Assembly: GCA_000992085.1 (NCBI GenBank)
Contig: LBTN01000005.1
Coordinates: forward strand, 4,999 to 68,998
Direction of reading: 5' to 3'
Source: Candidatus Magasanikbacteria bacterium GW2011_GWA2_37_8
Lineage (GTDB): Bacteria; Patescibacteriota; Patescibacteriia; Magasanikbacterales; GWA2-37-8
DNA length: 64,000 nucleotides
Each line of letters begins with the position of its first letter. Position 1 is the first letter of the stretch. The notes beneath the pieces are model-generated. The model worked only from the letters and a program-made list of their open reading frames with translations. It did not search any database and was not told the DNA's origin. Shown piece after piece: positions 4,563 through 57,965 of this stretch. The translations under genes and the position numbers were made by a program.

Positions 4563-4696
4563 ATAAACAAAAATCCATCGCTTCCCCACCTAGTGCTTCC
4601 TTTAAAGAAAACACCGGGTGATGTGCGATGGACTCTTGTCCTTTCCACTCACCACCCCCAGAAGCCGATCAAACGACCACTGAGTGAACGTGCGCA

Positions 4697-5134
4697 TCAG
4701 GTAACGGACTCGAGGTAGAAGAAGATACCTTCATCGTACCTCGCCCGGATCATGGTTGGGCCCCCGATGTCGATGTTTTCGATCGCCTTCTCGAAGGTAC
4801 ATCCCCCACACTTGACAACAGCCTCGAACGGGTAGAGGTTGCAGACTACGAGATCAACCGGCTTGATGCCGAGGTTCAGGATCTGGCCCTGCTGGTCGGC
4901 GTTGGGCAGTGCCAGAATTCCACCGAGCACGCCCGGATGCAGCGTCTTCAGACGCCCGTCCAAGCACTCGGGGAACTGCGTGACTTCGGCCACGTCGATT
5001 ACGGTCAATCCGGCGTCACGCAACGCCTTGGCCGTGCCACCCGTGGACACCAACTCGAAGCCGAGCTTCACGAGGCCCTCTGCGAATTCGACCAATCCGG
5101 TCTTGTCCGAGACACTCAATACCGCACGTTTCAT
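4697..5134 (-). CDS. Stand-alone MGS-like domain (N-terminal fragment of PurH, AICAR transformylase/IMP cyclohydrolase), GC-rich and probably truncated or foreign
   Basis: [18 protein letters not shown]...[11 protein letters not shown]...[16 protein letters not shown] is the PurH MGS-like domain, but the ORF diverges and stops after about 145 aa. About 60% GC in a 35% GC genome. A strong GGAGGAGGG ribosome-binding site lies upstream on the minus strand. Confidence 0.55.
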
Positions 5135-5216
5135 GAGCACCCTCCTCCGGCTCTGCCGGTGTAAAAATGGAACAGTCATATAAACATAACACAAACGCTA
5201 TTTTTTTTCAATACTA

Positions 5217-5244
5217 TTGCCTAAAAAAACAATGGTGATATAAT
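5217..5244 (+). promoter_or_regulatory. Sigma70-like promoter upstream of guaB
   Basis: TTGCCT, a 16-bp spacer, then an extended -10 TGaTATAAT. Confidence 0.45.
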
Positions 5245-5286
5245 ACCCCAGTATGAAATATATTCACCAAAAATATAGATAAAAAA

Positions 5287-5310
5287 CCACCTAAATCCGG
5301 GTGGTTTTGT
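5287..5310 (+). terminator. Terminator-like hairpin in the guaB leader (attenuator or sRNA end)
   Basis: CCACCtaaatccgGGTGG followed by TTTTGT, located between the promoter and the guaB start. Confidence 0.35.
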
Positions 5311-5324
5311 ACGTAACCCAAACA

Positions 5325-5356
5325 CTTACTCCTTATTCCTTACTCTTTATTCCTTA
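5325..5356. repeat. (GGARTAA)n heptamer repeat, guaB 5' UTR
   Basis: CTTACTCCTTATTCCTTACTCTTTATTCCTTA ends 5 nt before the guaB ATG. Confidence 0.75.
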
Positions 5357-5360
5357 ACTT

Positions 5361-6794
5361 ATGCTTTCCATCCCTCTAGCCCTTACCTACGACGATGTTC
5401 TAATCGTACCAAAACGTTCTTCTCTCACTTCACGAAGCGAAGCTAATACAACCACTCGCTTAACCAAAAAACTCAACCTCAACATTCCTATTGTTACTTC
5501 CAACATGGACACAGTTACCGAAAGTGATATGGCGATTGCTTTGGCTCGACTGGGTGGTATTGGAATTTTGCATCGTTTTATGACAATCGAAGAAAATGCC
5601 GAAGAAGTAAAACGTGTAAAACGCGCTCAAAATTTTATTGTAAACGATCCCTATACGATTGACCCCGAAAAATCTGTAGCCGAAGCCAAAGCCTACGCTG
5701 CTTCAATTGGCATTACCGGCCTAATGGTTTCGAATGGCGATCGCAAACTTCGTGGCATTCTTTCGCGTCGTGATTTTCTTTTCTCAAATGGAGATAACAA
5801 AAAAGTTTCCGAAATCATGACACCTCGCGAAAAATTAATTGTTGGCCACGCTCATACTACTTTTAACGAAGCCAAACAAATTTTCTCCGAACATAAAATC
5901 GAAAAACTGCCATTGGTTGATTCCGAAGATAGAATTGTGGGAATTATTACAAGCGATGATATTAAACATATTATTGATTATCCACTATCTAATTGCGATG
6001 ATGACGGCCAATTAATAGTGGGCGCTTCGGTTGGTGTACAAGGTGATTTTGTAGAACGAGCCGAAGAATTGGTAAAAGCTGGTGTTGATGTAATTGTAAT
6101 TGATATTGCCCACGGCCATTCTGATGCGATGTTTAAAGCCATTGCCAAATTACGCGAAGCTATTGGCGACACACAATTAATTGCAGGTAATATTGCCACT
6201 GCCTCGGCTGCTTTAGAATTATGTGAAGCCGGAGTAGATGGATTAAAAGTTGGTGTTGGCCCTGGTACAATTTGTATCACTCGTCTAGTGACTGGTTGTG
6301 GCATGCCCCAATTAACCGCTGTAATGGAAACTTCTCGAATTGCCAAACGTTATGGTGTACCCATTATTGCTGATGGCGGTATTCAAAGATCTGGAGACAT
6401 TGTAAAAGCTATCGGTGCTGGCGCTGATACAGTAATGATGGGTGGTATGTTTGCTGGCACAGAAGAAAGCCCTGGGGTGGTTATGACCAAAGGTGATAGA
6501 AAATTTAAAATTTGTCGAGGCAGTGCCAGTTTTACCGTAGCCAATCAAAGAAGATTAATTAAACAAAGCGCTAAAGAGGTAAAAGAAATAATACCAGAAG
6601 GGGTAGAATCAATCGTGCCGTTTAAAGGGCCAGTAACCGATATTGTAAACCAACTAATTGGCGGCCTAAAATCTGGCATGAGTTACACTAATTCCCACAC
6701 CATTGCCGAACTACAAAAAAACGTCGAATTTGTTCGCATGACCAACGCCGGCTTAAAAGAAAGCGGTTCCCATGATGTTCAAGCAATTACCTAA
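5361..6794 (+). CDS. guaB: IMP dehydrogenase
   Basis: Tandem CBS domains and the catalytic loop GVGPGTICITR. 477 aa. Confidence 0.92.
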   Translation: MLSIPLALTYDDVLIVPKRSSLTSRSEANTTTRLTKKLNLNIPIVTSNMDTVTESDMAIALARLGGIGILHRFMTIEENAEEVKRVKRAQNFIVNDPYTIDPEKSVAEAKAYAASIGITGLMVSNGDRKLRGILSRRDFLFSNGDNKKVSEIMTPREKLIVGHAHTTFNEAKQIFSEHKIEKLPLVDSEDRIVGIITSDDIKHIIDYPLSNCDDDGQLIVGASVGVQGDFVERAEELVKAGVDVIVIDIAHGHSDAMFKAIAKLREAIGDTQLIAGNIATASAALELCEAGVDGLKVGVGPGTICITRLVTGCGMPQLTAVMETSRIAKRYGVPIIADGGIQRSGDIVKAIGAGADTVMMGGMFAGTEESPGVVMTKGDRKFKICRGSASFTVANQRRLIKQSAKEVKEIIPEGVESIVPFKGPVTDIVNQLIGGLKSGMSYTNSHTIAELQKNVEFVRMTNAGLKESGSHDVQAIT

Positions 6795-6812
6795 ATGTGT
6801 GGATAAATATTT

Positions 6813-6841
6813 TTGACCATATTCTTCTATTCTGCTATACT
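6813..6841 (+). promoter_or_regulatory. Promoter of the pyr operon with an adjacent DnaA box
   Basis: TTGACC, a 17-bp spacer, then TATACT. A perfect DnaA box (TGTGGATAA, reverse complement of TTATCCACA) sits at 6798-6806 immediately upstream. Confidence 0.45.
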
Positions 6842-6852
6842 GCTTTTAGCTT

Positions 6853-6939
6853 ATGAAACACAAATATCCTCTTCAAAACTACAAAAAAATTAAAAAAGAC
6901 ACATTTGTCCTCAATTTATTAATTTCCATACTACCATAA
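6853..6939 (+). CDS. Candidate pyrB leader peptide (28 aa)
   Basis: ATG-initiated ORF MKHKYPLQNYKKIKKDTFVLNLLISILP whose stop codon lies inside the hairpin of the following terminator, 22 nt before the pyrB start. This is the layout of the E. coli pyrBI attenuator. Confidence 0.35.
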   Translation: MKHKYPLQNYKKIKKDTFVLNLLISILP

Positions 6940-6954
6940 GGTAGTATTTTTTTA
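6928..6954 (+). terminator. Intrinsic terminator/attenuator in the pyrB leader
   Basis: ATACTACCataaGGTAGTAT followed by TTTTTTT. Confidence 0.5.
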
Positions 6955-6961
6955 ATTATTT

Positions 6962-7876
6962 ATGAATTTTACCAATCGCGACATCATCGGAATATCAGAA
7001 TTAACAAAAACCGAAATTCTACATATTTTAAAAATAGCCAAAAGTCTAAAACAAAAACCACAACCAAAAATTTTAGAACACAAAGTAATGGGAAGTTGTT
7101 TTTTTGAACCTTCTACTCGTACCAGACTTTCTTTTGAAACTGCCATGGAGCGATTAGGAGGTAAGGTAGTGGGGTTTGCTGATCCAGGGGTAACATCGGC
7201 CAAAAAAGGCGAATCATTATTTGACGCTATAAAAATTATTGGTCAATATGTTGATGTAATCGCCATGCGCCACCCCATCGAAGGCGCAGCCAGGCGTGCG
7301 GCCGAAGCCACCGATAAACCAATCTTAAATGGCGGTGATGGTGCCAATCAACACCCTACTCAAACATTACTAGACTTATTTACCATCCAAGAATGTCAGA
7401 AAAAACTAGAGGGTTTAAGTATTGCTTTGGTAGGTGATTTAAAATATGGCCGTACCACTCATTCTCTAGCCCAAGCATTGGCGCACTTTAACGCCAAACT
7501 ATATTTTGTTGCCCCAGACAGTTTGCAGATGCCTGGATATATTTGCGATGAATTAAAAAACAATAATATCAAATTTTCCATACATCAAAAAATCGAAGAA
7601 GTGATAAATAAAGTAGACATCTTTTATATGACTCGCATCCAAGGCGAACGTTTTGCTGATCCAATGGAATACGAACGTGTAAAAAATGTTTTTGTACTTA
7701 ATGCTAAAATGCTAGAAAAAGCCAAACCAAATTTAAAAGTAATGCATCCCCTGCCTCGAGTTAACGAAATCACAACCAGTGTTGATAAAACCCCCCACGC
7801 CTACTATTTTGAACAAGCCGAAAATGGATTGTACGTACGAGAAGCACTGCTTGGATTAGTTTTAGGTAAACTTTAA
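6962..7876 (+). CDS. pyrB: Aspartate carbamoyltransferase catalytic subunit
   Basis: STRTR, HPTQ and HPLP motifs. 304 aa. Confidence 0.9.
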
Positions 7877-7899
7877 TTTTTTACTAAACATTAAAAAAT

Positions 7900-8379
7900 A
7901 TGTCTGAATCATTACAAAAAAACAAACTCCTTGTAACCGCTATCAAAGATGGTACAGTAATTGATCATATTACTGCGGCTCATGCTCTAAAAATTATTCG
8001 CTTGCTCAATCTAGCCGATCATAACAAACGCGTTACCGTCGGGTTAAACTTGCCTAGTAAAACTATGGGGCTAAAAGATTTAATCAAAGTAGAAGGCCGC
8101 GAATTAACCGAGGAAGAAATAAAACGCGTGGCGATATTGGCACCAGAGGCAACTATTAATATTATTAAAAACTATCAAATCGCTAAAAAATTTCATGCCG
8201 AAATTCCCGATGTAATCGAATATGTAGTGGTATGCCCTAATCCAATATGTATCACCAACAACGAAAACATGGATAGTAAATTTATTGTAAAAAAAGAAAA
8301 AAATAATATCAAATTAAAATGCTGGTATTGCGAAAAAACTTTTCCCCAAGAAGAAATCAGAGACTACAAAAATAATTAA
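7900..8379 (+). CDS. pyrI: Aspartate carbamoyltransferase regulatory subunit
   Basis: 159 aa with a C-terminal zinc domain (CPNPICITNNE...CWYCEK). Confidence 0.85.
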   Translation: MSESLQKNKLLVTAIKDGTVIDHITAAHALKIIRLLNLADHNKRVTVGLNLPSKTMGLKDLIKVEGRELTEEEIKRVAILAPEATINIIKNYQIAKKFHAEIPDVIEYVVVCPNPICITNNENMDSKFIVKKEKNNIKLKCWYCEKTFPQEEIRDYKNN

Positions 8380-8380
8380 T

Positions 8381-9547
8381 ATGCTGATTAAAACTTGGAA
8401 CAACCAAGAAATTGATCTGCCAATAGAGATCGCAAATACAGGTGATCCGGTGGCTTTACCAGCTCTAATCGACCCCCATGTCCATTTTCGCACTCCGGGT
8501 GCCGAACAAAAAGAAAATTGGATTACCGGTACAGAAGCAGCTTTGGCTGGTGGTGTAACCACTGTGTTTGATATGCCAAATAATAATCCGGCCGTTATAG
8601 ACTATCAGTCAATCATAAATAAAAAACAAATTATTAATGAACAAATTAAATTAACTGGCAAACAATTAAATTATTATCTTTATTTAGGCGCTACTCCAAA
8701 TAATTATACCGAATTTGCCAAATGCAAAAACGAAATAATTGGTGTAAAACTTTTTATGGGCGCTAGCACTGGTGATTTACTAGTAGAAAAACTAGAAGAT
8801 CAGGAAAATATTTTTAAAACCTGTGCCGAATTAGATCTAGTTTTGGCAGTTCACGCCGAAAGCGAAGAAATTATTAAAGCCAACAGTTCACAGTTCACAG
8901 CCAATAGTTTAAAAACAAGTGGCCATTCAAAAATTCGTTCTCGCGAAGCAGCTGTAAAAGCAGTTACACAAGCCTTATCTTTGGCTAAAAAATATAACAC
9001 CAAATTATACATCTGCCATGTTAGTACCAAAGAAGAAATTGAATTAATTACACAAGCAAAATCAGAAGGCGTAACAGTATATGCCGAAGTTGCCCCCCAC
9101 CACCTATTTTTAACCGAAAACGACTACGAACGCCTAGGAACGCTGGGACAAATGAATCCGCCTCTTCGTACCATTTCCGATCAAATTGCCCTCTGGCAGG
9201 CCATTACGAATGGTATAATTGATACTATAGGTACCGACCACGCCCCCCATACTTTAGAAGAAAAATCTAAAACATACCCCAATTCCCCATCTGGTGTACC
9301 TGGCATCGAAACTCTTTTGCCCCTACTATTAAACGCATACCACGAAGGTAAAATTTCTCTACAAAAAATTGTTGAACTAACTAAATTTAATATTGAAAAA
9401 ATATTTAATCTACCACCAAATAATGATTGGGTAATAGCAGATTTAAATTTAGAAAAAAAAGTAGAAAACAAAAACCTAAAAACCAAATGCGGCTGGAGCC
9501 CATACTCTGAAACAAAATTAAAAGGCTGGCCAATAATGACGGTATAG
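8381..9547 (+). CDS. pyrC: Dihydroorotase
   Basis: DPHVHFRTPG metal-binding motif, amidohydrolase fold. Contains an in-frame copy of the pyr-spacer repeat at 8885-8909 (..NSSQFTANSLK..), and its TAG stop comes from the downstream repeat. Confidence 0.88.
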   Translation: MLIKTWNNQEIDLPIEIANTGDPVALPALIDPHVHFRTPGAEQKENWITGTEAALAGGVTTVFDMPNNNPAVIDYQSIINKKQIINEQIKLTGKQLNYYLYLGATPNNYTEFAKCKNEIIGVKLFMGASTGDLLVEKLEDQENIFKTCAELDLVLAVHAESEEIIKANSSQFTANSLKTSGHSKIRSREAAVKAVTQALSLAKKYNTKLYICHVSTKEEIELITQAKSEGVTVYAEVAPHHLFLTENDYERLGTLGQMNPPLRTISDQIALWQAITNGIIDTIGTDHAPHTLEEKSKTYPNSPSGVPGIETLLPLLLNAYHEGKISLQKIVELTKFNIEKIFNLPPNNDWVIADLNLEKKVENKNLKTKCGWSPYSETKLKGWPIMTV

Positions 9548-9720
9548 TTCACAGCCAATAGCCAATAGTTCGTAGTTACAGGCCTATTGGCTGTGAACTA
9601 TTGGCTATGAACTATCAACAAGCTGTTGGCTATGAACTAAATAATTAATTAATACGCCAAAAAAACAGTCACCTAAATTAACTATTGGCTGTGAACTATT
9701 GGCTAAGAACTATACACATA
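9541..9720. repeat. Cluster of TTGGCTRTGAACTA palindromic repeats (pyrC/carbamoyltransferase spacer)
   Basis: Arms TAGTTCACAGCCAATAG and CTATTGGCTGTGAACTA form a long palindrome, plus about five further direct copies of TTGGCTRTGAACTA. Confidence 0.8.
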
Positions 9721-10673
9721 TGCGTCATCTCATTTCACTTAAAGAACAAACAAAAGAAGATTTACTAAATATTTTAAATATCGCCCAAAAATTAAAAGCC
9801 AAAAGAAAAGCCGGCGAAAGTGTAGATATATTACACAACCAGACTTTAATCATGCTTTTTCAAAAAACTTCTACTCGCACTCGCCTTTCATTCGAAGCTG
9901 GTATGACCGAACTTGGTGGACATGCAATTTATTTAGACGCCCGAAATACCCAATTTGCTTTAACTGATTTTAAAGATGAAATCCAAGCTGTAATGCGGTA
10001 CGGATCGGTGTTAATGTTTCGCGCCTTAAAAGCAGCCGATGTTACCACTGCGGCTTTATTAAATAAAATTCCAGTAATCGACGCTTGTAGCGAAAAATAT
10101 CACCCTTGCCAAGCACTAGGCGATATTCTTACCATGATCGAACATTCTAATGGTTTGACTAATATTAAAAAAGTTACTTGGCTTGGCATTGAAAATAATG
10201 TTTCCAATACTTTACAATTAGCTTGTGCTAAATTGGGTATCGAAGTGGCTATTGCCGCGCCAGAAGCCAACCCACCAAGTGTTGACCCAGAATTAAATAA
10301 TTTGGCAAATAGCACTGGCTTAATTAAACGTACCACCAACTTGGCCGAAGCCATGGCCAACACCGATTATGTTCACACCGATACTTGGATTGATATGGAA
10401 TTTTTTAAAGATGGCAAAGTAATACCCGAATATCAAGCCGAATACGATCGACGTTTAAATACTTTTAAACCCTTTCAATTAAACGCTAATTTAGTAGATA
10501 CCTATTCACCCAAAGCCGGCATTATGCATTGTATGCCTTGCCACATTGGTTACGAAATTTCTCGCGATGCAATTGATCACAAAAATTCTGTTATATTTGA
10601 TCAAGCCGAAAATCGAATGCACATCCAAAAAGCAATTATATTATGGCTTTTGGAAAAAGAAAACTTAATTTAG
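9720..10673 (+). CDS. Second carbamoyltransferase of the ATCase/OTCase family (argF-like or unknown specificity)
   Basis: STRTRLSFE carbamoyl-phosphate site, HPCQALGD and HCMPCH motifs. Inserted between pyrC and pyrD and flanked on both sides by the repeat clusters. An alternative start is at 9699. Confidence 0.7.
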   Translation: MRHLISLKEQTKEDLLNILNIAQKLKAKRKAGESVDILHNQTLIMLFQKTSTRTRLSFEAGMTELGGHAIYLDARNTQFALTDFKDEIQAVMRYGSVLMFRALKAADVTTAALLNKIPVIDACSEKYHPCQALGDILTMIEHSNGLTNIKKVTWLGIENNVSNTLQLACAKLGIEVAIAAPEANPPSVDPELNNLANSTGLIKRTTNLAEAMANTDYVHTDTWIDMEFFKDGKVIPEYQAEYDRRLNTFKPFQLNANLVDTYSPKAGIMHCMPCHIGYEISRDAIDHKNSVIFDQAENRMHIQKAIILWLLEKENLI

Positions 10674-10765
10674 TTCATAGCCAACATTAATAGTTCATAG
10701 CCAATAGTTCACAGCCAATAGGCCTGTAACTACGAACTATTGGCTATTGGCTGTGAACTCTAAAT
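10668..10765. repeat. TTGGCTRTGAACTA palindromic repeat cluster (carbamoyltransferase/pyrD spacer)
   Basis: TAGTTCATAGCCAAC..TAGTTCACAGCCAATAGGCCTGTAACTACGAACTATTGGCTATTGGCTGTGAACT. It supplies the TAG stop of the upstream gene. Confidence 0.8.
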
Positions 10766-10770
10766 ATCTT

Positions 10771-11679
10771 ATGCTAGAAACAATTTTCCTAAACAAACAA
10801 TTCTCTAATCCCATTGTACTCGCTTCAGGAATCTTAGGCGTAACCGGTGCTAGTTTAAATAATGTTATCAAAAATGGCGCTGGTGGTGTAACAGTAAAAT
10901 CTGTTTCCAAAGAACCACGTCTTGGCCACCCCAACCCTACCATGGCTGGTTATGAACATTTTTTTATTAACGCAGTTGGACTTTCCAACCCAGGAATTGA
11001 AAATGCTATTCTTGAATTAAAAAAATTCAAAGAATTGTCTAACGCACCGCTAATTGGTAGTATTTTTGCTGGCACACCCGAAGAATTTGGTTGGTTGGCA
11101 GAAAAAATTTGTGAAGCGCCAATTGATTTTTTGGAAATCGATATTTCTTGCCCAAATGTTAGCCGCGAATTTGGCGACCCCTTTGCTTATTCTGTACCAG
11201 CCGTAGAAAAAATTACCAAAGCAGTCAAAGAAAAATCAACTGTACCAATTTCTGTTAAACTTTCCCCTAATGCTTGGAATATTGATATAATTGCTAAAGC
11301 CGCCGAAAGTTCTGGTGCCGATGCTATTACCGCCGTAAACACTATTAGCGGTATGACAATCGATGTTCGGGCTCGTCGACCAGTTCTACACAATAAACAA
11401 GGTGGCGTATCTGGCCCAGCCCTATTTCCAATTGCCCTTAAATGCGTGTATGATATTTACAGGGCAGTAAAAATTCCAATTATTGGTACTGGCGGAGTAA
11501 CCACTGGTGAAAATGCCTTAGCCATGATTATGGCTGGCGCTACTTTGGTGGGTGTAGGCTCTGCGGTATATTTTCGAGGGGTAGAAGTTTTTAAACACAT
11601 TACCGAAGAAATGACAAAAATTATGGAGGAAGAAGGAATAAAAAATTTAAACGAAATTCGTGGCTGTGTACATTTGTAG
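10771..11679 (+). CDS. pyrD: Dihydroorotate dehydrogenase catalytic subunit (class 1B)
   Basis: TIM-barrel DHODH motifs (GVTVKS.., SNPG, GGV.TGE). Confidence 0.88.
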   Translation: MLETIFLNKQFSNPIVLASGILGVTGASLNNVIKNGAGGVTVKSVSKEPRLGHPNPTMAGYEHFFINAVGLSNPGIENAILELKKFKELSNAPLIGSIFAGTPEEFGWLAEKICEAPIDFLEIDISCPNVSREFGDPFAYSVPAVEKITKAVKEKSTVPISVKLSPNAWNIDIIAKAAESSGADAITAVNTISGMTIDVRARRPVLHNKQGGVSGPALFPIALKCVYDIYRAVKIPIIGTGGVTTGENALAMIMAGATLVGVGSAVYFRGVEVFKHITEEMTKIMEEEGIKNLNEIRGCVHL

Positions 11680-11745
11680 TTCAGAGCCAATAGCCAATAG
11701 TTCGTAGTTACAGCCTATTGGCTGTGAACTATCAACAAACTATTA
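11676..11745. repeat. TTGGCTRTGAACTA palindromic repeat (pyrD/pyrK spacer)
   Basis: TAGTTCAGAGCCAATAGCCAATAGTTCGTAGTTACAGCCTATTGGCTGTGAACTA. The pyrD TAG stop lies inside it. Confidence 0.8.
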
Positions 11746-11759
11746 ACTTATAATATTAT

Positions 11760-12563
11760 ATGGATTCTACATTTATTAAAATCTCTGATATAGAAATCGA
11801 AAACTCGAACGTAAAAACTTTTTATTTTGATTATGAATTAAAAAGTAAACCAGGACAATTTATCATGCTTTGGATTCCAGGCACAGATCAAAAACCATTT
11901 TCTGTTTCTTTTGATAACGGCCAAAAATTTGGTTTAACCATTTTTAAACGAGGGCCAGCAACCAATAAATTATTTAAAATGAAAATTGGTGATCGGGTCG
12001 GAATAAATGGACCATACGGCACCAACTTTACTATCAATCCAAATTTACACTACATTATGGTAGCTGGTGGGTATGGTGCTGCCCCTTTAAAATTTTTAAC
12101 TCAAACTATTAATGGTGCTGCAATCGATTTTATTGCTGGTGGCCGCACCAAAGATAATTTATTATTTGAAGAAGAACTAACAAAAATACCAAACCTTAAT
12201 TTACATATTACTACCGATGACGGCAGCAAAGGTTATAAAGGATTTGTAACTGATGTATTAGTAGAATTGTTAGCTAAAATTGACCCTGCCCAAAAAGATA
12301 AAACTTTGGTGGTTACTTGTGGGCCAGAATTAATGCAAAAAAAGGTATTGGATATTTGTAATGAACACAATATTAATTGCGAAGTAAGCATCGAACGCTA
12401 TATGAAATGTGGTATGGGTATTTGCGGCCAATGCGTAATTGATGATTTGGGTATTTGTATGTGTAAAGACGGACCAGTAGTTAATCAAAAATTAGCTAAC
12501 CAAATTTTTGAATTTGGTAAATATCATCGTGATAAAAGTGGTGTAATAGTTCACAGCCAATAG
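11760..12563 (+). CDS. pyrK: Dihydroorotate dehydrogenase electron-transfer subunit
   Basis: FAD/NAD-binding domain plus a C-terminal 2Fe-2S motif CGMGICGQCV. The final residues VHSQ and the stop codon are encoded by the repeat. Confidence 0.85.
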   Translation: MDSTFIKISDIEIENSNVKTFYFDYELKSKPGQFIMLWIPGTDQKPFSVSFDNGQKFGLTIFKRGPATNKLFKMKIGDRVGINGPYGTNFTINPNLHYIMVAGGYGAAPLKFLTQTINGAAIDFIAGGRTKDNLLFEEELTKIPNLNLHITTDDGSKGYKGFVTDVLVELLAKIDPAQKDKTLVVTCGPELMQKKVLDICNEHNINCEVSIERYMKCGMGICGQCVIDDLGICMCKDGPVVNQKLANQIFEFGKYHRDKSGVIVHSQ

Positions 12564-12650
12564 CCAATAGTTCATAGTTACGGGCCTATTGGCTACGAAC
12601 TATCAACAACCTATTGGCTACGAACTATTGGCTATGAACTAATTAAACAT
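12549..12650. repeat. TTGGCTRTGAACTA palindromic repeat cluster (pyrK/pyrE spacer)
   Basis: TAGTTCACAGCCAATAGCCAATAGTTCATAGTTACGGGCCTATTGGCTACGAACTA plus two further direct copies. Confidence 0.8.
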
Positions 12651-13247
12651 ATGACCAAAGATTTAATTCTAAAACTTTACGAAATCAATGCGGTTAAATT
12701 TGGTGAATTTAAATTAAAGAGCGGTATCATGTCGCCAATTTATATTGATCTGCGTATTACTGTTTCTTACCCCGAAGTATTAAAAATGGTAGCCGAAGCA
12801 ATGTGGCAAAAAGTAAATGACATAAAATTTGATTTAATTTGCGGTGTCCCCTATACTGCTTTACCGATTGCTACGGTTATGTCGGTAGAACACAATATCC
12901 CAATGATTATGCGCCGCAAAGAAGTAAAAGATTATGGTACTAAAAAAGCAATTGAAGGAAAATTTGAAACCGGACAAAATTGTTTAATTATTGAAGACTT
13001 GGTTACTTCTGGCTCTAGCGTTTTTGAAACCATCGAACCACTACAATTAGAAGGATTAAAAGTAACAGACATTGTAGTATTGGTAGATCGTGAGCAAGGT
13101 GGAAAAAAACATCTTCAAACAAAAGGCTATAATTTACATTCTGTAATTACCATTTCAGAAATGTTAGAAGTTTTAAAAACTGAAAATAAGTTAGAAAAAG
13201 AAATGGTAGAAAAAGTAAAAACATTTATTCAAAGCAACCAAGTGTAA
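12651..13247 (+). CDS. pyrE: Orotate phosphoribosyltransferase
   Basis: PRPP-binding motif [11 protein letters not shown]. 198 aa. Confidence 0.88.
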
Positions 13248-13249
13248 TT

Positions 13250-14020: not shown

Positions 14021-14145
14021 ATTTATATACCCCATCTTGACAGAATAGCAAATTTATGCTATTCTGTTATGTTATTGGGGTGGAGAAAATAATAATTAAT
14101 TAGTTGATTGTTATTTTGTCCGTAACCATATGGATGGAGGAATCC

Positions 14146-14502: not shown

Positions 14503-14565
14503 GCCCGTCCGGTCGGTCGTCTTGCTCACGCGAGGCGATCGACCGGTGGGCTCTTTCTATATATA

Positions 14566-14598
14566 AACCCTGCACCGTTCTGGTGCAGGGTTTTGATT
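14566..14598 (+). terminator. Intrinsic terminator closing the GC-rich cassette
   Basis: CCCTGCACCgttcGGTGCAGGG followed by TTTTGATTT. Confidence 0.7.
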
Positions 14599-14608
14599 TA
14601 AATATTTT

Positions 14609-47800: not shown

Positions 47801-49317
47801 CCAATTAATTCGGCAAATTTTTTCCGTTCAGAAAAATAAGAAACGCTTAATTGATAACTTTGATGACGATCTACTCGTTTTTCACTATTAGGGGTTAGAT
47901 TAGAATAAACACCAAGTTCAAGTAAAAGTATTTGCACCTCATGCAATAATTTTTCAGAAATTGAAGTAAGCACAACATCACCACAATTATGGCTTTCATC
48001 GTTACGTTGACGTACACAACCATCAGCTTGAAATAAACCGTGCAAAAATGCTGCCTTCTCTGCCACTGTACCAGACATAATGATTGTTGGTACTTGAGCT
48101 AAAGACGAATTATAATTTACTTGATATTCATTTACAAAAGTATCGGCCTCTTTAGAATTAAAATGCACCACCCGATACAAATCACTTACTTCTTTACGTA
48201 TAGTAACAGTATGATGACCAAAAATATTGTCCATCAAACGTACTGCTTCAACAAATTCGTCGTCATTAATAGTAATTATACCAAACATCGTAGTTTTTTG
48301 ATTACGACCATATTTACCATAAAAACCGTCACCTAATACCCAACCTGCCAATTCAGCCTTATCTATTTTTATTTGCTCAACTTGGTTTTTTTCTGCTTGT
48401 GGCAAAGAATACTGCTGTACTCTATTACCTAACAAATCTTTAAACTCACACCAATCATACTTCCCGCCGTCCTTAGCTCGCATATCTGCCGACCAAACCA
48501 AATGATCATCAGTAAAATCTAAATAATTACCATTTTTTAAAGTGGCACGATACAATTTTTTAATTCCATTATTTTTTACTGCCAAAACTTTAACAAATTT
48601 TTCACCATCAAAAATTTTAATGTCGGTTAAATTTTCTTCAACTACATCGCCTAAATTCAAAATTCCTTTTTCAGTAAATAATTTTGTATCATACCGGCCA
48701 CAAGCATGTGGTTGGGGGTGAGTATATGCATCAGTTGATTGGGTTAATACACCGGTGTTAGGATCAACATAATAGTGACCTTGAGCCGGGCCGTTAATTC
48801 CGTATGCCCATTGCAAACCAGTGTTAAACCATTGTGGTGAATTGGGCGCAGCCAATTGGCCAATAATCATATACACCAATTCGTCATAAAAAATTTCGGC
48901 GTCTTCGGCTGAAGCAAAATAACTATATTTTTCTCCCCAATAGCGCCAAGTGCCAGCCATACGATGAGCCACTTGTTTAATACTGTGTTCAGAACCCAAA
49001 ATTGGAGTACCGTCTTCTTTTAATTGTGGTGTACCATCGGCGTTGTATTGGGGCACACCCGCTTTACGAAAATATTTTTGCGCCAAAATATCAGTAGCCA
49101 CTTGCGACCAAGTTTTTGGCACTTCTACATCAAGCATTTCAAAAATTAATTTACCACTTGGTTCACGAATAACCGACGAACGCAATTCGTATTCAAACAA
49201 ATCATACGGACTTACACCACTTTTGGTAAAATATCTTTCAAAGTGTAGACCATTTTCTATATCGTATTTAAAATCATTATCTTTTACAAAAACTTTAGTG
49301 GCGGCAGCAGTATTCAT
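44851..49317 (-). CDS. nrdJ: Ribonucleoside-triphosphate/diphosphate reductase, adenosylcobalamin-dependent (class II), intein-containing
   Basis: Class II RNR extein motifs (..THPQPHA|C...|CFIQSVKDD.., C-terminal CPTCGH...CYKCLNCG zinc ribbon). 1488 aa including a 321-aa intein. Confidence 0.88.
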   Translation of the reverse strand: MNTAAATKVFVKDNDFKYDIENGLHFERYFTKSGVSPYDLFEYELRSSVIREPSGKLIFEMLDVEVPKTWSQVATDILAQKYFRKAGVPQYNADGTPQLKEDGTPILGSEHSIKQVAHRMAGTWRYWGEKYSYFASAEDAEIFYDELVYMIIGQLAAPNSPQWFNTGLQWAYGINGPAQGHYYVDPNTGVLTQSTDAYTHPQPHACGRYDTKLFTEKGILNLGDVVEENLTDIKIFDGEKFVKVLAVKNNGIKKLYRATLKNGNYLDFTDDHLVWSADMRAKDGGKYDWCEFKDLLGNRVQQYSLPQAEKNQVEQIKIDKAELAGWVLGDGFYGKYGRNQKTTMFGIITINDDEFVEAVRLMDNIFGHHTVTIRKEVSDLYRVVHFNSKEADTFVNEYQVNYNSSLAQVPTIIMSGTVAEKAAFLHGLFQADGCVRQRNDESHNCGDVVLTSISEKLLHEVQILLLELGVYSNLTPNSEKRVDRHQSYQLSVSYFSERKKFAELIGFVSEEKKNKLFCANGVVVHNCFIQSVKDDLVNEGGIMDLWVREARLFKYGSGTGTNFSNLRGSGEKLSGGGSSSGLMSWLRIGDRAAGAIKSGGTTRRAAKMVILNVDHPDIEEFIEWKVKEEKKVAALVAAGYDSAYESEAYQTVSGQNSNNSVRVMQEFLEAVENDGEWNLKWRTDGRSCKTLKARELWDKVAQAAWSCADPGLQFDTTINDWHTCPQSGRINASNPCSEYMFLDDTACNLASINLAHFYDSETMTFDVAGFKHATRTWTTVLEISILMAQFPSAAIAQGSYDFRSLGLGYANIGSVLMTAGIPYDSPEALAFAGSITALLNAESYVTSAEMARALGPFNKFAMNRADMLRVIRNHRRAAFNAKPDEYEGLAIPPLGIDPQYAPAYLLAAARESWNQALELGEKYGFRNAQNTCLAPTGTIGLLMDCSTTGVEPDFALVKFKKLAGGGYFKIVNEAVPVALKTLGYTETQITDMIDYLKGHGSLKGAPAITHESLKEKGLTDEDLAKLEKNLPTVFELPFAFNVWTMGEECLERLGFSSEQYNDSNFNLLTALGYNADAINAANEYVCGAMTIEGAPHLKKEHYAVFDTANKNGRKGQRYIHYLGHIRMMAAVQPFLSGAISKTINMPNSATVEDVKIAYMASWKLGLKSNALYRDGCKLSQPLSSKSKKAEDKVEKNQESGIKNQEEMSGAKGEVSVKLVNAGVEQNVPQEHAQTKYAHDGTVQGTQIYIHGEQRRMPYKRSGLTIKAKVGGQKVFLRTGEYPDGKLGEVFIDMYKEGAAFRSVLNLFAISISTGLQYGIPLEEYVDKFTFTRFEPSGMTDHPNIRSCTSVIDLVFRILGMEYLGRTDFVQVKPNGIQKNRAEQMAKMAAEMQGQTTLDLKEKDDDEIEKEKLILKETVDKDQMSLPNLPKTNDTIATKTTTAVVGSAADQQLSGMMGDAPPCPTCGHITIRNGSCYKCLNCGSTTGCS
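47740..48702 (-). mobile_element. Intein with a LAGLIDADG homing-endonuclease domain, inserted in nrdJ
   Basis: Begins with Cys immediately after QPHA and ends ..VVHN followed by extein Cys. Internal LAGWVLGDGFY and LHGLFQADGCV LAGLIDADG blocks. Confidence 0.8.
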
Positions 49318-50136: not shown

Positions 50137-51234
50137 ATGGAAGAAGAATTAATTGAAATTGAAGAACGGATTATTACCCCTCAAGCCGGAAACGAAGAGG
50201 CGGTTTTTGAAATTACTTTGCGCCCACAGCAGTTGGTAGATTTTGTTGGCCACGAAGAGGCGGTTTTTGAAATTACTTTGCGCCCACAGCAGTTGGTAGA
50301 TTTTGTTGGCCAAGAACAATTAAAACAAAATCTTAATATTGCTATCCAAGCAGCTACAAAACGCGGAGAATCTTTGGAGCATATTATGCTTTATGGTAAT
50401 CCAGGTTTGGGTAAAACTACATTGGCACATATTATCGCCCATGAAATGAATGCCAATATCAAAGTAACTTCTGGCCCAACTTTAGAAAAAGTTGGTGATC
50501 TGGCGGCAATATTATCTAACCTGCAAGAAGGCGACGTTTTGTTTATTGACGAAATTCATCGTTTAAATAAAACCATTGCCGAAGTTTTGTACCCTGCCCT
50601 CGAAGATTATGCACTAGATATTATTATTGGACAAGGCCCAGCCGCTCGTTCGATTCGCGTGCCGCTAGCCCATTTTACTTTAATTGGCGCTACCACCAAA
50701 TTAAGTTCGTTGCCAGGGCCACTACGTGATCGGTTTGGCCATGTATATCATTTAAATTTTTACGAACCAGAAGATATTGAAAAAATTATCAAACGTAATT
50801 CCAATATTTTAAAAGTAAATATCGAACCAGAAGCGCTAGCTTTAATTGCTTCGCGCGCCCGTCGCACCCCGCGCATTGCCAACCGACTTTTAAAACGTGT
50901 GCGCGATTATTCTGAAGTACATGGCAATGGTGGTATGGTTAATAAAAAAATTGCTGGCGAAGCCATGGCGCTACTGGCAATAGATGAATTTGGATTAGAC
51001 GAAATTGATCGACGATTATTAACAATTTTAATTGAAAAATTTGATGGCGGTCCAGCTGGTTTAAACACATTGGCTGCCGCTATTGCCGAAGAAATGGATA
51101 CTATCGAAACAATCTACGAACCGTTTTTGTTACAGATGGGATTTTTGGAACGCACCCCACGCGGTCGCAAAGCCACCAACGCTGCTTATAAACATCTGGG
51201 TTTTGATACCCCAAAAATTGCAACCCTTTTGTAA
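50137..51234 (+). CDS. ruvB: Holliday junction ATP-dependent DNA helicase RuvB
   Basis: Walker [15 protein letters not shown]+ sensor motifs and a winged-helix C-terminus. Carries an in-frame 60-bp tandem duplication at 50194-50313. Confidence 0.9.
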
Positions 51235-52145: not shown

Positions 52146-52223
52146 ATACAAAAAAAACTCTTCGAATAATGAAGAGTTTTTTAAATCTAACTATCCGATA
52201 AATTCGGATAATTGAAGACTAGA

Positions 52224-54095
52224 CTAATAAATCTTCTCTACCTGCACTCCCGTATAATAATATTTAAGCAACTGGTCATACGTCCAGCCGTCTTTGTCGG
52301 CTCGAGCGGCAGCATCGGCGGCGCTCATACCTACACCGTGGCCAAACATACTTTGACCTTCGTCGTATTTACAATCTACTGGTTGTAACCATGGTTTATC
52401 GGTTCCGCCCCAAGCTTCGCTCCACAAACGCGTACGACCATCAGAATGGCCAAAATACGGGGTGGTAACAACCGTGCTGTTATAGGTAACCATTTCGCCA
52501 TAAGTGGCTTGTTCGGCTTGCACTACGCGTGGCATCAACACTTCCGAGTTATACCCTAAATACAATTGATCAACTGTAGTAGCATAAACATCAAAAGTGC
52601 GCTGACTGGCTGGCAAACCATTATTAATATTGTAATAAGCATAAGATCGAGCGGCCACCAAAATTGCTTTAATATATTCCATAGCGGCACCGCTGGAAGT
52701 TTCGCCAATGCCAGCGATATATTCATCTAGTGGTAATTCGTTAACAATATAGGGCATGCTACTTTTTGGTGAATAAACATATTCAAATGTACCTCGATAC
52801 ATATTAAAATTCTTTGCACCCTTCCAACTTACTTTGCGATCATAATTTACCAAAGTAAAATAATTTTGTGGGTCATACGGCACCAAACGAATTTTTTCGC
52901 CTTCGGTAAAATCCAGCCCCGCACCAAAAAATCCATATACACCATTGCTGTAATTTAACATTGCTTTAGTACCAGCAGGCAAATCTCCTTTTAAAACTTC
53001 ACCGCTATAAACTTTGTAAGGAAAAGAAGAAATAAATTCAACTTCATCGGTAGTTTTATACAAACCAATTCGAATAGTGGGTTCGTTAATTAAAACTCGA
53101 GCCGAAGAAAAAACAGTTTCTTGATAACCACTGGGTGCATCGCTAGTTACGGTAATCGGTAATTCCAAAGTACCGCCAACCAAAGTATGATTGTTGGCTG
53201 TTAATTGAAAACGGGCAATGTAGTTGCCTTGTTTAGCAGGCAAGCGAAAAAGATAAACCACTTCCAAAGGATCGCCTGGTTTAACAACACTGTCTCCTCC
53301 GGTAATTTTTTGAATTGATTGCCAAGATGGATCGGTAATATTTACTCGAGTAGTAGAATCACCGGTTGGCCGACTACCAGCTTCTTGCCATGAATAATTA
53401 TCCCAAGCAACCGTACCAGCATTTAAATAACGAACAATAAATTTTACTTGTTCACCACCACCCGCACTAATACTACGTGCCGAAAAAGCTACCAAGTTAG
53501 CATTGTATTCTTTGTTGACTAATTCTGATTCGTCTTGGCCATCTAAACCAGAATTTCCAATATTATCATCACTAACAGAAGTAACATTAACTTTTGGTTT
53601 GACAGCCACTGCTTTTACTTTTAAATAAAAATGGGTGCCAGCAATCCAAGTTTTGTTTTCGGATACTAAATAAAAATCCTCTTTATAATCGCCAATTTTT
53701 GTAGGCGCATACAAACGAATTTTTATTTCGGCAATTTGACCTGGTTTGGTTGTAGCCGAAATTTTGGCCGGCTGATCTTTGGCCAACCAATTTTTACCAG
53801 CCAACTTACTATTATGATAATTTGGATCGACTGTATAGGCAGAAACGTAATTCGGACCAACATTAGCCCAAACACTTTTACCAGTATTTTTAATTTTTAC
53901 TACCACATCTTTATATTCTCCCGCAGGAATTTCGATCGGATCAGACACTGTTTGACTAACATACTTTCCGCTGAATGTTTTATCTCGCGCCACTGGCTCT
54001 ACAAAACCAGCAGCCTTAACTGGTGGAACAAAAACAATAAAACAAAAAAATGTTACAAACAGTGTCAAAAATCTTTTTAACATAAACAAAAACAA
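52224..54095 (-). CDS. Secreted SpoIID/LytB-domain protein
   Basis: Signal peptide, a beta-rich repeat region, and a C-terminal SpoIID signature (..GHGVGMSAADAAARADKDGWTYDQLLKYYYTG). Confidence 0.7.
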   Translation of the reverse strand: MFLFMLKRFLTLFVTFFCFIVFVPPVKAAGFVEPVARDKTFSGKYVSQTVSDPIEIPAGEYKDVVVKIKNTGKSVWANVGPNYVSAYTVDPNYHNSKLAGKNWLAKDQPAKISATTKPGQIAEIKIRLYAPTKIGDYKEDFYLVSENKTWIAGTHFYLKVKAVAVKPKVNVTSVSDDNIGNSGLDGQDESELVNKEYNANLVAFSARSISAGGGEQVKFIVRYLNAGTVAWDNYSWQEAGSRPTGDSTTRVNITDPSWQSIQKITGGDSVVKPGDPLEVVYLFRLPAKQGNYIARFQLTANNHTLVGGTLELPITVTSDAPSGYQETVFSSARVLINEPTIRIGLYKTTDEVEFISSFPYKVYSGEVLKGDLPAGTKAMLNYSNGVYGFFGAGLDFTEGEKIRLVPYDPQNYFTLVNYDRKVSWKGAKNFNMYRGTFEYVYSPKSSMPYIVNELPLDEYIAGIGETSSGAAMEYIKAILVAARSYAYYNINNGLPASQRTFDVYATTVDQLYLGYNSEVLMPRVVQAEQATYGEMVTYNSTVVTTPYFGHSDGRTRLWSEAWGGTDKPWLQPVDCKYDEGQSMFGHGVGMSAADAAARADKDGWTYDQLLKYYYTGVQVEKIY

Positions 54096-55625: not shown

Positions 55626-55679
55626 TCTGCTAAAATACTATTACCAAATAACTACTTAACAATTTAGCAATTTAATTCT

Positions 55680-56726
55680 ATGGACTTTTCTAAAATTCGC
55701 AATTATCTTTTTTTAGGCTTACTTGGTATAGTAACAATCTCATTTTTATCATTACTTAAAAGTTTTGCCTACCCAATATTTTGGGCAGCAATAATCGCTG
55801 CACTATTTTATCCTTTATACAAATACATTAATACTAAAATCAATCATCCAAACTTTAGTACCCTTATCACTATGTTGGTTGTACTATTGGTAATCATTAT
55901 CCCACTCACAGTTATCGGCACCCTATTAATCAAACAATCACTAGAAGTTTACTTATCTTTTGACAACAATCAAATTAGCACCACCTTACATCAATCACTA
56001 GAATGGTTTAAAAGCAATCCATACACCACAAAATTACAAATTAATGAGGCGATGATAACCGAAAAATTTTCCGAAATTACCCGAACAATCACGAGTTATA
56101 TTTTTGTCACTGCTAAAAATCTCACTCAAGATTCTATTACCTTTTTTGCCATGTTCTTGATTATGTTTTATACCCTGTTCTTCTTTATCCGTGATGGCAA
56201 AAAATTGCTTCTTAAATTAATGTATATCTGCCCATTAGGAGATAAATACGAAAAAATGCTCTATAAAAAATTTACCACCACCACCCACTCTACTATCAAA
56301 GGCACTTTGTTGGTAGCCGCTCTTCAAGGCACGCTAGGCGGTTTGCTTTTCTGGATAACCGGTATTTCTGGAGCAGTAATTTGGGGAATTTTAATCGCTG
56401 TTGCCTCTCTAATACCCGCAATTGGCACAGCTATAATTTGGCTTCCTGCTGGGATCGTGATGTTACTTAGTGGTGGTATTTGGCAAGGATTAACTATCCT
56501 AATTTTTGGAGCACTAGTAATTAGTACCATCGATAACTTTCTCCGCCCAATTTTGGTGGGTAAAGACACCCAAATGCACCCATTGCTAATTTTATTTTCT
56601 ACTTTAGGTGGTTTAATCTTGTTTGGTATTTCCGGCTTTATGATCGGACCGATAATCGCCGCCCTTTTTATCTCTTTCTGGGAGATGTACGAGGAATATT
56701 ATAAAGATGATTTGGCACATAATTAA
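55680..56726 (+). CDS. AI-2E family transporter (UPF0118/PerM-like)
   Basis: 348 aa with 7-8 transmembrane segments and conserved ..PILVGKDTQMHPLLILFS.. region. Confidence 0.65.
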   Translation: MDFSKIRNYLFLGLLGIVTISFLSLLKSFAYPIFWAAIIAALFYPLYKYINTKINHPNFSTLITMLVVLLVIIIPLTVIGTLLIKQSLEVYLSFDNNQISTTLHQSLEWFKSNPYTTKLQINEAMITEKFSEITRTITSYIFVTAKNLTQDSITFFAMFLIMFYTLFFFIRDGKKLLLKLMYICPLGDKYEKMLYKKFTTTTHSTIKGTLLVAALQGTLGGLLFWITGISGAVIWGILIAVASLIPAIGTAIIWLPAGIVMLLSGGIWQGLTILIFGALVISTIDNFLRPILVGKDTQMHPLLILFSTLGGLILFGISGFMIGPIIAALFISFWEMYEEYYKDDLAHN

Positions 56727-56829
56727 GAATATTTATCAGACAAACACCGCCCTGTATAAAACAAGGCGGTGTTGACAAAAATAATCAAATGATATAAAAT
56801 ATTTTTACTAGAATTTAAATACCAAACAC

Positions 56830-56901
56830 GCGGGTGTAGTACAATGGTTCGTATACGTCCTTGCCAAGGATGAGATGGCGGTTCGATTCCGCTCACCCGC
56901 T
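56830..56901 (+). tRNA. tRNA-Gly (anticodon GCC)
   Basis: Acceptor GCGGGTG/CACCCGC, anticodon loop UUGCCAA, T-loop GGTTCGATTCC. Followed by a terminator hairpin at 56906-56938. Confidence 0.8.
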
Positions 56902-57065
56902 CAAAGAAACTTTTCTGATTAAATCAGGAAAGTTTTTTATTATATTCGGCATAAGGTACATAATATTCAAATGGTATTCTAAAAATAGATTGGACTAGTT
57001 TATGATTTTGTGGTTAAATTAAATTGGTATTGACTGAGGAAATATAATAGCCACGAGGAGGAATC

Positions 57066-57251
57066 GTGAAAATGCGCACTTTGCGTTTGATCCTTTTGCT
57101 GGGCATTCCGATAGTCTTGACTACAGGAGGTGCCTCCTACTTTTGCCTGAGCGGGATGCCCCAGGCATGGGCAATGCTGGCCCATGTGGCGGCATTTCTA
57201 GTTCTTTGGGCCGTTGCGATTCGGATATCAGGCCCAGGCCGCCGCAAGTAG
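57066..57251 (+). CDS. GC-rich small membrane protein (foreign cassette)
   Basis: GAGGAGG ribosome-binding site. 61 aa with two hydrophobic helices. About 60% GC. Lies about 160 bp downstream of tRNA-Gly. Confidence 0.4.
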   Translation: MKMRTLRLILLLGIPIVLTTGGASYFCLSGMPQAWAMLAHVAAFLVLWAVAIRISGPGRRK

Positions 57252-57965
57252 GTTTGAGTGGGGGATGCGATGAAGATCCATTCGCACACCACATTTTTTT
57301 CTGAATTATTTTGGAAAAAAATGTGGAGGATATTGCGAATGGATTTTTGTTTTGTAATTTAAGTTAGTCAACCCAATCTGTAATATAATTATAATTGTGT
57401 TACTATAAATTTAGTGAATTAACTGTTCAGAGATTGGGGAGGTTTTCATGGGGAAGCGTTCACACAAGAAGCGAGATTGGGAGGCTGACTACAACGACCT
57501 CCCGAGCTTCCGTCGTGCGTGACAGTTCGTGAACATGAACATGAAGGATTTCAAAGTTGCTGTTATGAAGATTGAACGTCGTGGTCGTCGTGCGGAAGCT
57601 GGATTAGGCTTTTCCAGGCGCGAGGAGCATGAGTGCTTGGGTACCTTCTACCCCAAGTAACACATGCGGAAGTCCTGAAACAGCGCTTCTCAGACACCAC
57701 CCCCCCTTCGGCGCGAAGGGGGCGAGGCTATGCGGTACCACATCTACCGTCGACATTCACTCAGATTATTTAATCACCTTGAATAATTTGAAAGGAGTTC
57801 TGTCGACGGTTTTTGTTTTATATTCATCAAAATAGTTCTAACATCCTCTACTAAGGAGCCCATCGTAAAACTTCGCTTAAATAGCGGGGTTTTTGTTTTA
57901 TAAGTTATCCACACTTGACGAGTTTAATTAGGTGGTGTATCATTCAAACATACATTTGAACGTAT

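Follow-up and report, generated by a model that had tools for sequence, protein, structure and literature searches.

GC-Rich Islands in an AT-Rich Chromosome

The DNA described here, referred to as the window, is a stretch of 64,000 nucleotides (nt) of contig LBTN01000005.1 from Candidatus Magasanikbacteria bacterium GW2011_GWA2_37_8, a member of the candidate phyla radiation (CPR) from Rifle groundwater. The GC content of the whole window is 37.5%, and short GC-rich gene cassettes are spread across 53 kb of it. When islands were defined in 120-nt windows as long runs with a GC content of at least 50%, the cassettes were delimited as follows:

4571-5190, cassette 1: GC 56.6%, peak 65.8%
14101-14620, cassette 2: GC 57.7%, peak 69.2%
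42021-42670, cassette 3: GC about 51.5%
44161-44750, cassette 4: GC about 52%
57051-57300, cassette 5a: GC 54%
57411-57810, cassette 5b: GC about 50%

The GC profile agrees with a preliminary description of this DNA in placing sharp islands at these sites; the GC content of 55-62% given there is correct for cassettes 1 and 2, while cassettes 3, 4, and 5 are nearer 50-54%. In the main open reading frames (ORFs) of cassettes 1, 2, 3, 4, and 5a, the GC content at third codon positions (GC3) is 0.77, 0.80, 0.64, 0.57, and 0.61, respectively, against 0.26-0.35 in eight native genes. With 50-58% GC compared to 37.5%, and a GC3 of 0.57-0.80 compared to about 0.30, the islands have the composition of horizontally acquired islets. 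A sixth island, at 52221-52550, was discarded as it is the conserved SpoIID domain of a native gene and not a cassette.

The possibility that the islands are structured RNA genes was rejected for cassettes 1-4, whose pattern of GC at the three codon positions and whose ratio of nonsynonymous to synonymous divergence (dN/dS) are those of coding sequences. A scan of the window against Rfam, at the gathering thresholds and at E ≤ 1, found four tRNAs and no family inside the islands, and the strongly negative RNA fold z-scores of the cassettes arise mostly from terminator hairpins.

Shine-Dalgarno Sequences and Expression Signals

Every island ORF has a GGAGG Shine-Dalgarno (SD) sequence 4-10 nt upstream of its start. 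In contrast, none of 33 native starts, taken from gene calls in independent assemblies of the same population, is preceded by an SD, not even by a 5-nt SD core within 25 nt upstream. The same contrast emerged when the entire window was scanned for GGAGG followed, after 4-11 nt, by a start codon that opens a frame of 20 or more amino acids (aa), which recovered the six cassette ORFs:

4697-5134, minus strand: cassette 1
14146-14502, plus strand: cassette 2
42128-42622, minus strand: cassette 3
44158-44685, plus strand: cassette 4
57066-57251, plus strand: cassette 5a
57448-57522, plus strand: cassette 5b

The remaining matches were only positions internal to native genes and one ORF of 28-29 aa. 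The preliminary claim that the SD marks the island ORFs and not the native genes is thus borne out.

Promoter-like hexamers occur in the AT-rich DNA just 5' of cassettes 1-4, and hairpins with a T-tract follow cassettes 1, 2, 4, 5a, and 5b, in agreement with the earlier statement that most cassettes end in a strong terminator; no canonical terminator was found 3' of the cassette 3 gene. In having their own promoter, their own terminator, and a distinct GC content, the cassettes resemble phage morons, as judged by pattern-level matches only.

Assembly Evidence

The contigs matching the window derive from Rifle groundwater metagenomes (PRJNA268031 and its re-assemblies). In them the junctions between cassettes and flanks are the same in ENA re-assemblies and in megahit, Logan, and JGI contigs of several samples, and at least 10 contigs that differ in sample and assembler share the island junctions. 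The cassette 4 gene with both flanks is present in 15 contigs from several samples and assemblers, the guaB neighborhood including cassettes 1 and 2 in 11 contigs, and the cassette 5 region is overlapped by four independent contigs at 99.9-100% identity.

One might still suspect an assembly chimera or contaminant DNA behind the islands, because the window assembly does contain local errors: compared with at least two independent assemblies of the same population, it has collapses of 112-145 nt and a 69-nt tandem duplication. However, the junctions are identical in contigs that differ in sample and assembler, and they are found in a diverged relative too, so that this explanation is effectively refuted and can be given next to no credence, as the preliminary description had argued. 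The errors are the following, with the discrepancies located at about 4742, 39139, about 42905, 47770, about 50190-50325, and 52343:

About 4742 (4742/4743), cassette 1 gene: 141 nt missing, gene truncated
rpoB: 114 nt missing, gene shortened
PduO-type adenosyltransferase gene: 112 nt missing, gene frameshifted (114 aa here against 182 aa)
Ribonucleotide reductase (RNR) gene: 120 nt missing, gene shortened
About 52343, SpoIID-domain gene: 145 nt missing; another contig, L001, has an N gap there

Such read-length collapses in the deposited assembly create false "gene fragments".

Age and Selection

A close relative is represented by the contigs L011 and L020 (Logan SRR22388049), whose native genes share 85-88% nucleotide identity with those of the window. 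In L011, cassette 1 also lies between gatB and guaB, has 60% GC, and retains both the SD and the 3' untranslated region (UTR). Likewise, cassette 3 in L020 also adjoins the adenosyltransferase gene, with a GC3 of 0.70 and a conserved SD. Compared across the lineages, cassette 1 has a dN/dS of 0.18 and cassette 3 one of 0.15, with native genes at 0.03-0.12. These ratios, together with the shared loci, indicate that the two genes are functional and older than the split; cassettes 1 and 3 are under purifying selection. The preliminary description had named equally high GC in close relatives as the finding that would speak for ancestral genes, and the relative indeed has both at the same loci and with equal GC, so that these two cassettes are not recent insertions.

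Cassette 4 differs between the lineages. At the orthologous site, L020 has 56 nt in place of the window segment from about 43256 to 44763 with this cassette and a neighboring gene for a TrmB-family regulator (about 1.5 kb together), an indel that reflects either a gain or a loss. Cassettes 2 and 5 were not recovered in the relative. The proposal that the islands are acquired modules holds in part: the foreign-type GC3 and SD and the lack of cassette 4 and TrmB in the relative speak for it, and the age of cassettes 1 and 3 speaks against recent insertion.

Cassette 1, a Stand-Alone IMP Cyclohydrolase

Cassette 1 consists of the following elements:

4562-5165, minus strand: GC-rich unit
4562-4639, minus strand: terminator, a nested long hairpin (4574-4639) with a T-tail (4562-4573)
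4697-5134, minus strand: coding sequence, separated from the terminator by a conserved 3' UTR
About 5140-5148, minus strand: SD, GGAGGAGGG
5183-5211, minus strand: promoter-like site (TTGAAA, 17 nt, TG-TATGTT)

The promoter-like site falls within the AT-rich intergenic stretch between this gene and the divergent guaB, a region conserved in L011. The product matches the Pfam family MGS (E 2e-24) and had been described as a 145-aa "PurH MGS-domain fragment". This fragment is an artefact, because 141 nt have collapsed in this assembly; two independent assemblies (L012 and L014) give a complete gene of 192 aa that is otherwise 100% identical to the window. The intact protein has an MGS domain (PF02142) and the N-terminal part of AICARFT_IMPCHas (PF01808), and the L012 copy aligns to residues 1-191 of solved PurH proteins. 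The motifs SVSDK, RLKTLHP, NLYPF, IDIGGP, and RAAAKN are all intact in it, the window copy having lost the RAAAKN region through the collapse. Judged by its sequence, cassette 1 is a complete stand-alone inosine monophosphate (IMP) cyclohydrolase that corresponds to the N-terminal domain of PurH.

Unlike PurH, the protein has no 5-aminoimidazole-4-carboxamide ribonucleotide (AICAR) formyltransferase domain, and it does not classify as bifunctional PurH (TIGR00355), scoring 191 bits against a cut-off of 528 and covering profile positions 1-130 only. It is like ForH, a stand-alone homologue of the PurH IMP cyclohydrolase domain with a solved structure (PDB 6NKO). Such versions are common, with many proteins of about 195 aa found in long contigs and metagenome-assembled genomes, and PHROGs includes an IMP cyclohydrolase-like stand-alone family (phrog_30501) that cassette 1 matches at E 1e-36. 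What distinguishes cassette 1 from the other stand-alone enzymes is a GC content of 60% in a 37% genome and a CPR host. The best matches outside the clade have 63-67% identity and are taxonomically scattered.

CPR bacteria usually lack de novo purine synthesis. Because the gene is divergent from guaB and adjoins a full pyrimidine operon, a role in nucleotide metabolism is plausible for the predicted enzyme. The pyrimidine set downstream of guaB (5361-14020) is apparently complete, with pyrB, pyrI, pyrC, a second ornithine carbamoyltransferase-like gene, pyrD, pyrK, pyrE, and pyrF, and is notable since CPR are usually described as being without nucleotide synthesis.

Cassette 4 and Its Protein Family

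Cassette 4 and its control region comprise:

43253-43996, minus strand: TrmB-family regulator, AT-rich (GC3 0.26), divergent from cassette 4; Pfam TrmB, E 7.5e-14
44000-44084: large palindrome, a candidate operator in the divergent control region of TrmB and cassette 4
44078-44770, plus strand: cassette 4 unit, with 3' UTR hairpins to about 44770
44078-44106, plus strand: promoter-like site (ATGACA, 17 nt, TATAAT)
44145-44151, plus strand: SD, GGAGGAG
44158-44685, plus strand: coding sequence for a 175-aa acidic protein (30 D+E, 16 K+R)

The Pfam match and the palindrome, whose arms measure 19 nt (84% match) and 14 nt (93% match), agree with the earlier report of a cassette beside a TrmB regulator and a large palindromic operator. 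Cassette 4 is probably under TrmB control.

The 175-aa protein belongs to a family of about 16 members, which includes 13 homologues among 5.8 billion clusters and two from a metagenome scan. The homologues share 42-63% identity, and the named members are all Magasanikbacteria. The protein has a confident predicted fold, for which no fold match was detectable. The gene neighborhood is different in each of the seven loci with readable neighbors. In the six loci for which DNA is available, the gene has 51-61% GC, the hosts having 33, 37, 39, 40, 56, and 59%, and its GC3 shows no trend toward that of the host, being 0.82 in the most AT-rich host and 0.50 in a GC-rich one. An AGGAGG-type SD precedes the gene in five of these six loci, with a weak GGAAAGGAAG in L017. 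The neighbors of the homologue have no SD in L018 and L023 and nearly none in L017, while several small neighbor genes in L029 are SD-led too. Two of these homologues lie in contigs of 56-59% GC, and in L021/L023 the gene looks inserted among neighbors without an SD. The L023 contig (GCA_013558295.1, JACCDN010031778.1, positions 1-12810) has 59% GC and native genes likewise without SD; its class II RNR has 54% identity to the window RNR and the same C-terminal zinc-ribbon tail, so L023 may represent a GC-rich CPR relative.

A TrmB-family gene is near the cassette 4 gene in three loci (the window, L022, and L018). These regulators are only 28-32% identical to one another, no closer than to an unrelated TrmB, so that co-inheritance with cassette 4 was rejected beyond the family level. 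A scan of GTDB genomes with the window TrmB for orthologous loci returned one relative only, at 24% identity.

The homologue in L029 adjoins a tyrosine recombinase, and in two other loci imperfect direct repeats bracket the homologue:

L017, 9815-9855 and 10543-10583: 41 nt, 90% match, 728 nt apart
L021, 2093-2121 and 2906-2934: 29 nt, 86% match, 813 nt apart

The repeats are unique within those loci, which belong to two unrelated genomes, and may be target duplications. In L021 the homologue is near a B12-dependent RNR and a cobalamin adenosyltransferase, the same as in the window, an association that may or may not be meaningful. The window RNR, a class II (B12-dependent) enzyme (44851-49317, minus strand), carries a LAGLIDADG intein at about 47740-48700 that is absent from the 1175-aa RNR of L020.

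Cassettes 2, 3, 5a, and 5b

The elements of these cassettes are:

14037-14065, plus strand: cassette 2 promoter-like site (TTGACA, 17 nt, TG-TATTCT), overlapping a hairpin 3' of pyrF
14105-14600, plus strand: cassette 2 unit, GC 57.7%, GC3 0.80
14136-14140, plus strand: SD, GGAGG
14146-14502, plus strand: coding sequence, 118 aa
14503-14551, plus strand: GC hairpin
14565-14599, plus strand: terminator
42021-42660, minus strand: cassette 3 unit, GC about 51.5%, GC3 0.64
42128-42622, minus strand: coding sequence, 164 aa, with a GC-rich 3' UTR at 42021-42127
42631-42635, minus strand: SD, GGAGG
42662-42707, minus strand: 20-bp hairpin with a T-tract, between promoter-like site and start codon
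42729-42757, minus strand: promoter-like site ahead of the cassette 3 start
57040-57350, plus strand: cassette 5a unit, GC 54%, beginning 138 nt 3' of tRNA-Gly(GCC)
57055-57061, plus strand: SD, GAGGAGG
57066 (or 57072) to 57251, plus strand: coding sequence, 59-61 aa
57273-57347, plus strand: terminator, nested hairpin
57430-57822, plus strand: cassette 5b unit, GC-rich and SD-led
57436-57442, plus strand: SD, GGGGAGG
57448-57522 (24 aa) and 57529-57660 (43 aa), plus strand: tiny ORFs, the only ones in cassette 5b
About 57756-57815, plus strand: terminator, preceded by GC hairpins

The gene callers of public assemblies picked another frame at cassette 2; the 118-aa frame is supported because its GC3 is 0.80, compared to 0.40 in that alternative. 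Its hydropathy profile has hydrophobic segments at residues 10-35 and 76-107, and that of the cassette 5a protein at residues 3-26 and 31-54; both products are predicted to be small membrane proteins. The RNA fold z-scores are -6.7 for cassette 2 and -5.6 for cassette 5a. Cassette 2 is an orphan, its sole match among 1.84 billion cluster representatives being a 97% identical copy at the same site. Cassette 5a is identical in the independent scaffold L024, with L027 overlapping it from 57201, and its only family matches are weak (PHROG 37262, E 0.002; PADLOC 2TM, E 0.05). By hydropathy, cassettes 2 and 5a look like small proteins whose one or two helices lie in the membrane, as in type I toxin-antitoxin systems. 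Searches of PADLOC, Pfam, NCBIfam, and PHROGs for toxin, defence, or immunity families gave no significant match for cassettes 2-5 and so did not support the earlier suggestion of toxin or immunity-like proteins.

The product of cassette 3 carries the motif CNCGEGKQHG...HNNMHNHGCH. The protein had been called His-rich, which amounts to 10 His and 5 Cys in 164 aa. Its sole homologue is in L020, at the syntenic site and with 83% amino acid identity; no match was found in Pfam, in the PDB, or among phages, and the AlphaFold2 model is unusable (pLDDT 39). The hairpin at 42662-42707 may either terminate the adenosyltransferase gene that lies upstream or act as a leader terminator/attenuator of cassette 3.

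Contrary to the earlier report, cassette 3 is not directly beside tRNA-Leu, since an HNH endonuclease gene and about 350 nt intervene. This free-standing gene (41195-41668, minus strand) abuts the 5' end of tRNA-Leu(TAA) (41111-41193) and is absent in L020, where the tRNA directly adjoins sequence homologous to window position 41732; the gene resembles a homing-endonuclease insertion. Two inverted 21-nt arms, 121 nt apart (41738-41900), lie between this gene and cassette 3 in an AT-rich stretch conserved with L020.

For cassette 5b, with a fold z-score of -4.2, no Rfam family was found. The unit is overlapped at 100% identity by L024, L026, L027, and L028, with L024 and L027 covering it entirely, and it may specify a small RNA or else one or two small peptides.

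Origin of the Cassettes

The islands are probably single-gene accessory modules of foreign origin that became fixed in an AT-rich Magasanikbacteria chromosome whose native genes lack an SD. What the data show is the deviant composition, the SD contrast, genuine junctions, purifying selection, presence or absence in the relative, and a restricted family distribution; the transfer, the donor, expression, and all functions other than the enzyme family of cassette 1 are inferred. Each module would combine a GC-rich ORF led by a strong GGAGG SD with a sigma-70-like promoter situated in AT-rich DNA and, usually, a hairpin terminator of its own. The modules would have arrived by horizontal transfer out of a gene pool that is richer in GC and uses SDs, which could be other bacteria or mobile elements circulating among CPR. 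The transfers detected so far into Patescibacteria come mostly from other Patescibacteria (PMC12455944). They would then have been inserted into intergenic gaps and retained for useful products, with cassette 1 bringing an IMP cyclohydrolase beside guaB and the pyrimidine operon. Because a GC-rich structured mRNA would be unable to use the native A/U-rich unstructured initiation, expression and retention would be limited to arrivals that have a strong SD; by analogy with the biology of SD-less lineages (PMC7797042, PMC13000453), the SD may enable the translation of GC-rich mRNA. The cassette 4 homologues, with their host-independent 51-61% GC, their SD, and their differing loci, were counted in favor of foreign modules, and the recombinase in L029 and the 29- and 41-nt repeats around two homologues are hints of mobility.

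The cassettes share with acquired islets and ORFans their short length, deviant GC and codon usage, intergenic position, accessory or unknown functions, and, for cassette 4, a possibly patchy distribution. They differ in having no mobility genes, att repeats, or identifiable donor, in that two of them predate a split at species level and yet are not ameliorated, and in being SD-marked in a genome whose native genes have no SD. The likeness to phage morons is that of an autonomous transcription unit with GC unlike its surroundings, whereas the cassettes are outside any prophage, have core metabolic and information-processing neighbors, and are without viral homologues. A tRNA-targeted island was also considered for the cassettes at tRNA-Gly, and the region around 56700-58100 yielded no integrase and no repeated copy of the tRNA-Gly 3' end. 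Searches for att-like or target repeats around the window cassettes gave only chance-level matches of 14-25 nt. Nor are the cassettes those of an integron, being scattered, each with a promoter-like site, and sharing no recombination-site repeat.

Several points weigh against a foreign origin. No donor was found, and cassettes 2 and 3 remained orphans when compared with billions of proteins; the window loci yielded no mobility gene and no relative of viral, phage, or plasmid type. The split that cassettes 1 and 3 predate lies at a synonymous divergence (dS) of about 0.5-0.9, yet their GC3 is 0.64-0.82 in both lineages, and the cassette 4 homologues, about 50% diverged from one another, have in no case drifted to the host composition. 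Furthermore, differences at 4-fold degenerate sites amount to 41 of 145 (0.28) in cassettes 1 and 3 together, compared to 480 of 1100 (0.44) in six native genes, a contrast (z about 3.5 by our own arithmetic) that concerns two genes only and is a lead rather than a result. The lower divergence is odd because AT-biased neutral decay should make GC-rich sites change faster, and it may reflect either constraint or movement between the lineages after the split. Simple transfer explains poorly the absent amelioration and the host-independent composition of cassette 4, and these two points lend some weight to two rivals, a maintained composition and a small mobile cassette.

In the first of these rivals, the cassettes form a gene class with a separate translation regime, for which selection maintains both the SD and the high GC; ribosomes that otherwise ignore the SD would initiate conditionally in an SD-dependent manner, or rare GC-ending codons would throttle expression. 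The slow synonymous sites of cassettes 1 and 3 agree with it, as do an SD conserved over a dS of about 0.5 and the cassette 4 homologues, which keep the SD (weakly in L017) and 51-61% GC in hosts of 33-59% GC and whose GC3 (0.82 in the most AT-rich host, 0.50 in a GC-rich one) does not follow the host. There is also a precedent in the SD-led rpsU of SD-blind Bacteroidia (PMC7797042, PMC13000453), where likewise very few genes have a strong SD and the others none; rpsU, however, is a native ribosomal autoregulator, and the cassettes are compositionally foreign accessory genes. The rate test rests on two genes and 145 sites, later gene flow between lineages would lower dS as well, and maintenance could not show in cassettes 2 and 3, which lack a wider family. 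The anti-SD motif is absent in about half of Parcubacteria (10.1101/2022.01.07.475337). A maintained class of this kind is unlikely.

The second rival takes the cassette 4 family, and perhaps other cassettes, as cargo of a nonautonomous mobile unit of about 0.7-0.8 kb that comprises a promoter region, a gene, and a terminator, inserts into intergenic DNA, and duplicates 29-41 nt of its target. The target-derived imperfect repeats in L017 and L021, the differing locus in each genome, and the recombinase in L029 point that way, but no such repeats surround any window cassette or the homologues in L022 or L029, an empty site was recovered for neither L017 nor L021, the SD is all that the upstream regions have in common, and duplications of 29-41 nt fit no known transposition chemistry, so that such a unit is quite unlikely. 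Still less credible are phage morons or prophage remnants, despite the promoter, terminator, and atypical composition of each cassette and the PHROGs family of the IMP cyclohydrolase: the flanks are housekeeping loci (gatB/guaB, pyrF/ruvA, adenosyltransferase/RNR, tRNA-Gly/arsR), no phage genes are nearby, and scans of IMG/VR and tblastn searches of GenBank phages yielded no relatives except bacterial-type purH.

Returning to the preferred account of foreign accessory modules, acquired genes of atypical GC are well known as a kind; what stands out is the restriction of the SD to the cassettes in a CPR genome, together with the new 175-aa family. A greater novelty, namely a distinct class of small genes in Magasanikbacteria-type CPR, held at high GC and SD-led as a second, conditional translation channel, or else a new recombinase-less mini-cassette with 29-41 nt target duplications, would be an unlikely outcome.

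Significance

Most CPR bacteria are regarded as symbionts that cannot be cultured and have very small genomes, and their gene gains and the sources of these bear on identifying their hosts and understanding their metabolism. The combination of an SD and a high GC3 offers a clean single-gene marker that separates acquired-type from native genes and that could be applied across CPR genomes for listing accessory genes. The analysis flags a predicted stand-alone IMP cyclohydrolase inserted in a nucleotide-metabolism cluster and defines a CPR-restricted protein family whose confident predicted fold has no detectable match. It also raises the testable question of whether the ribosomes of these bacteria still read SD sequences.

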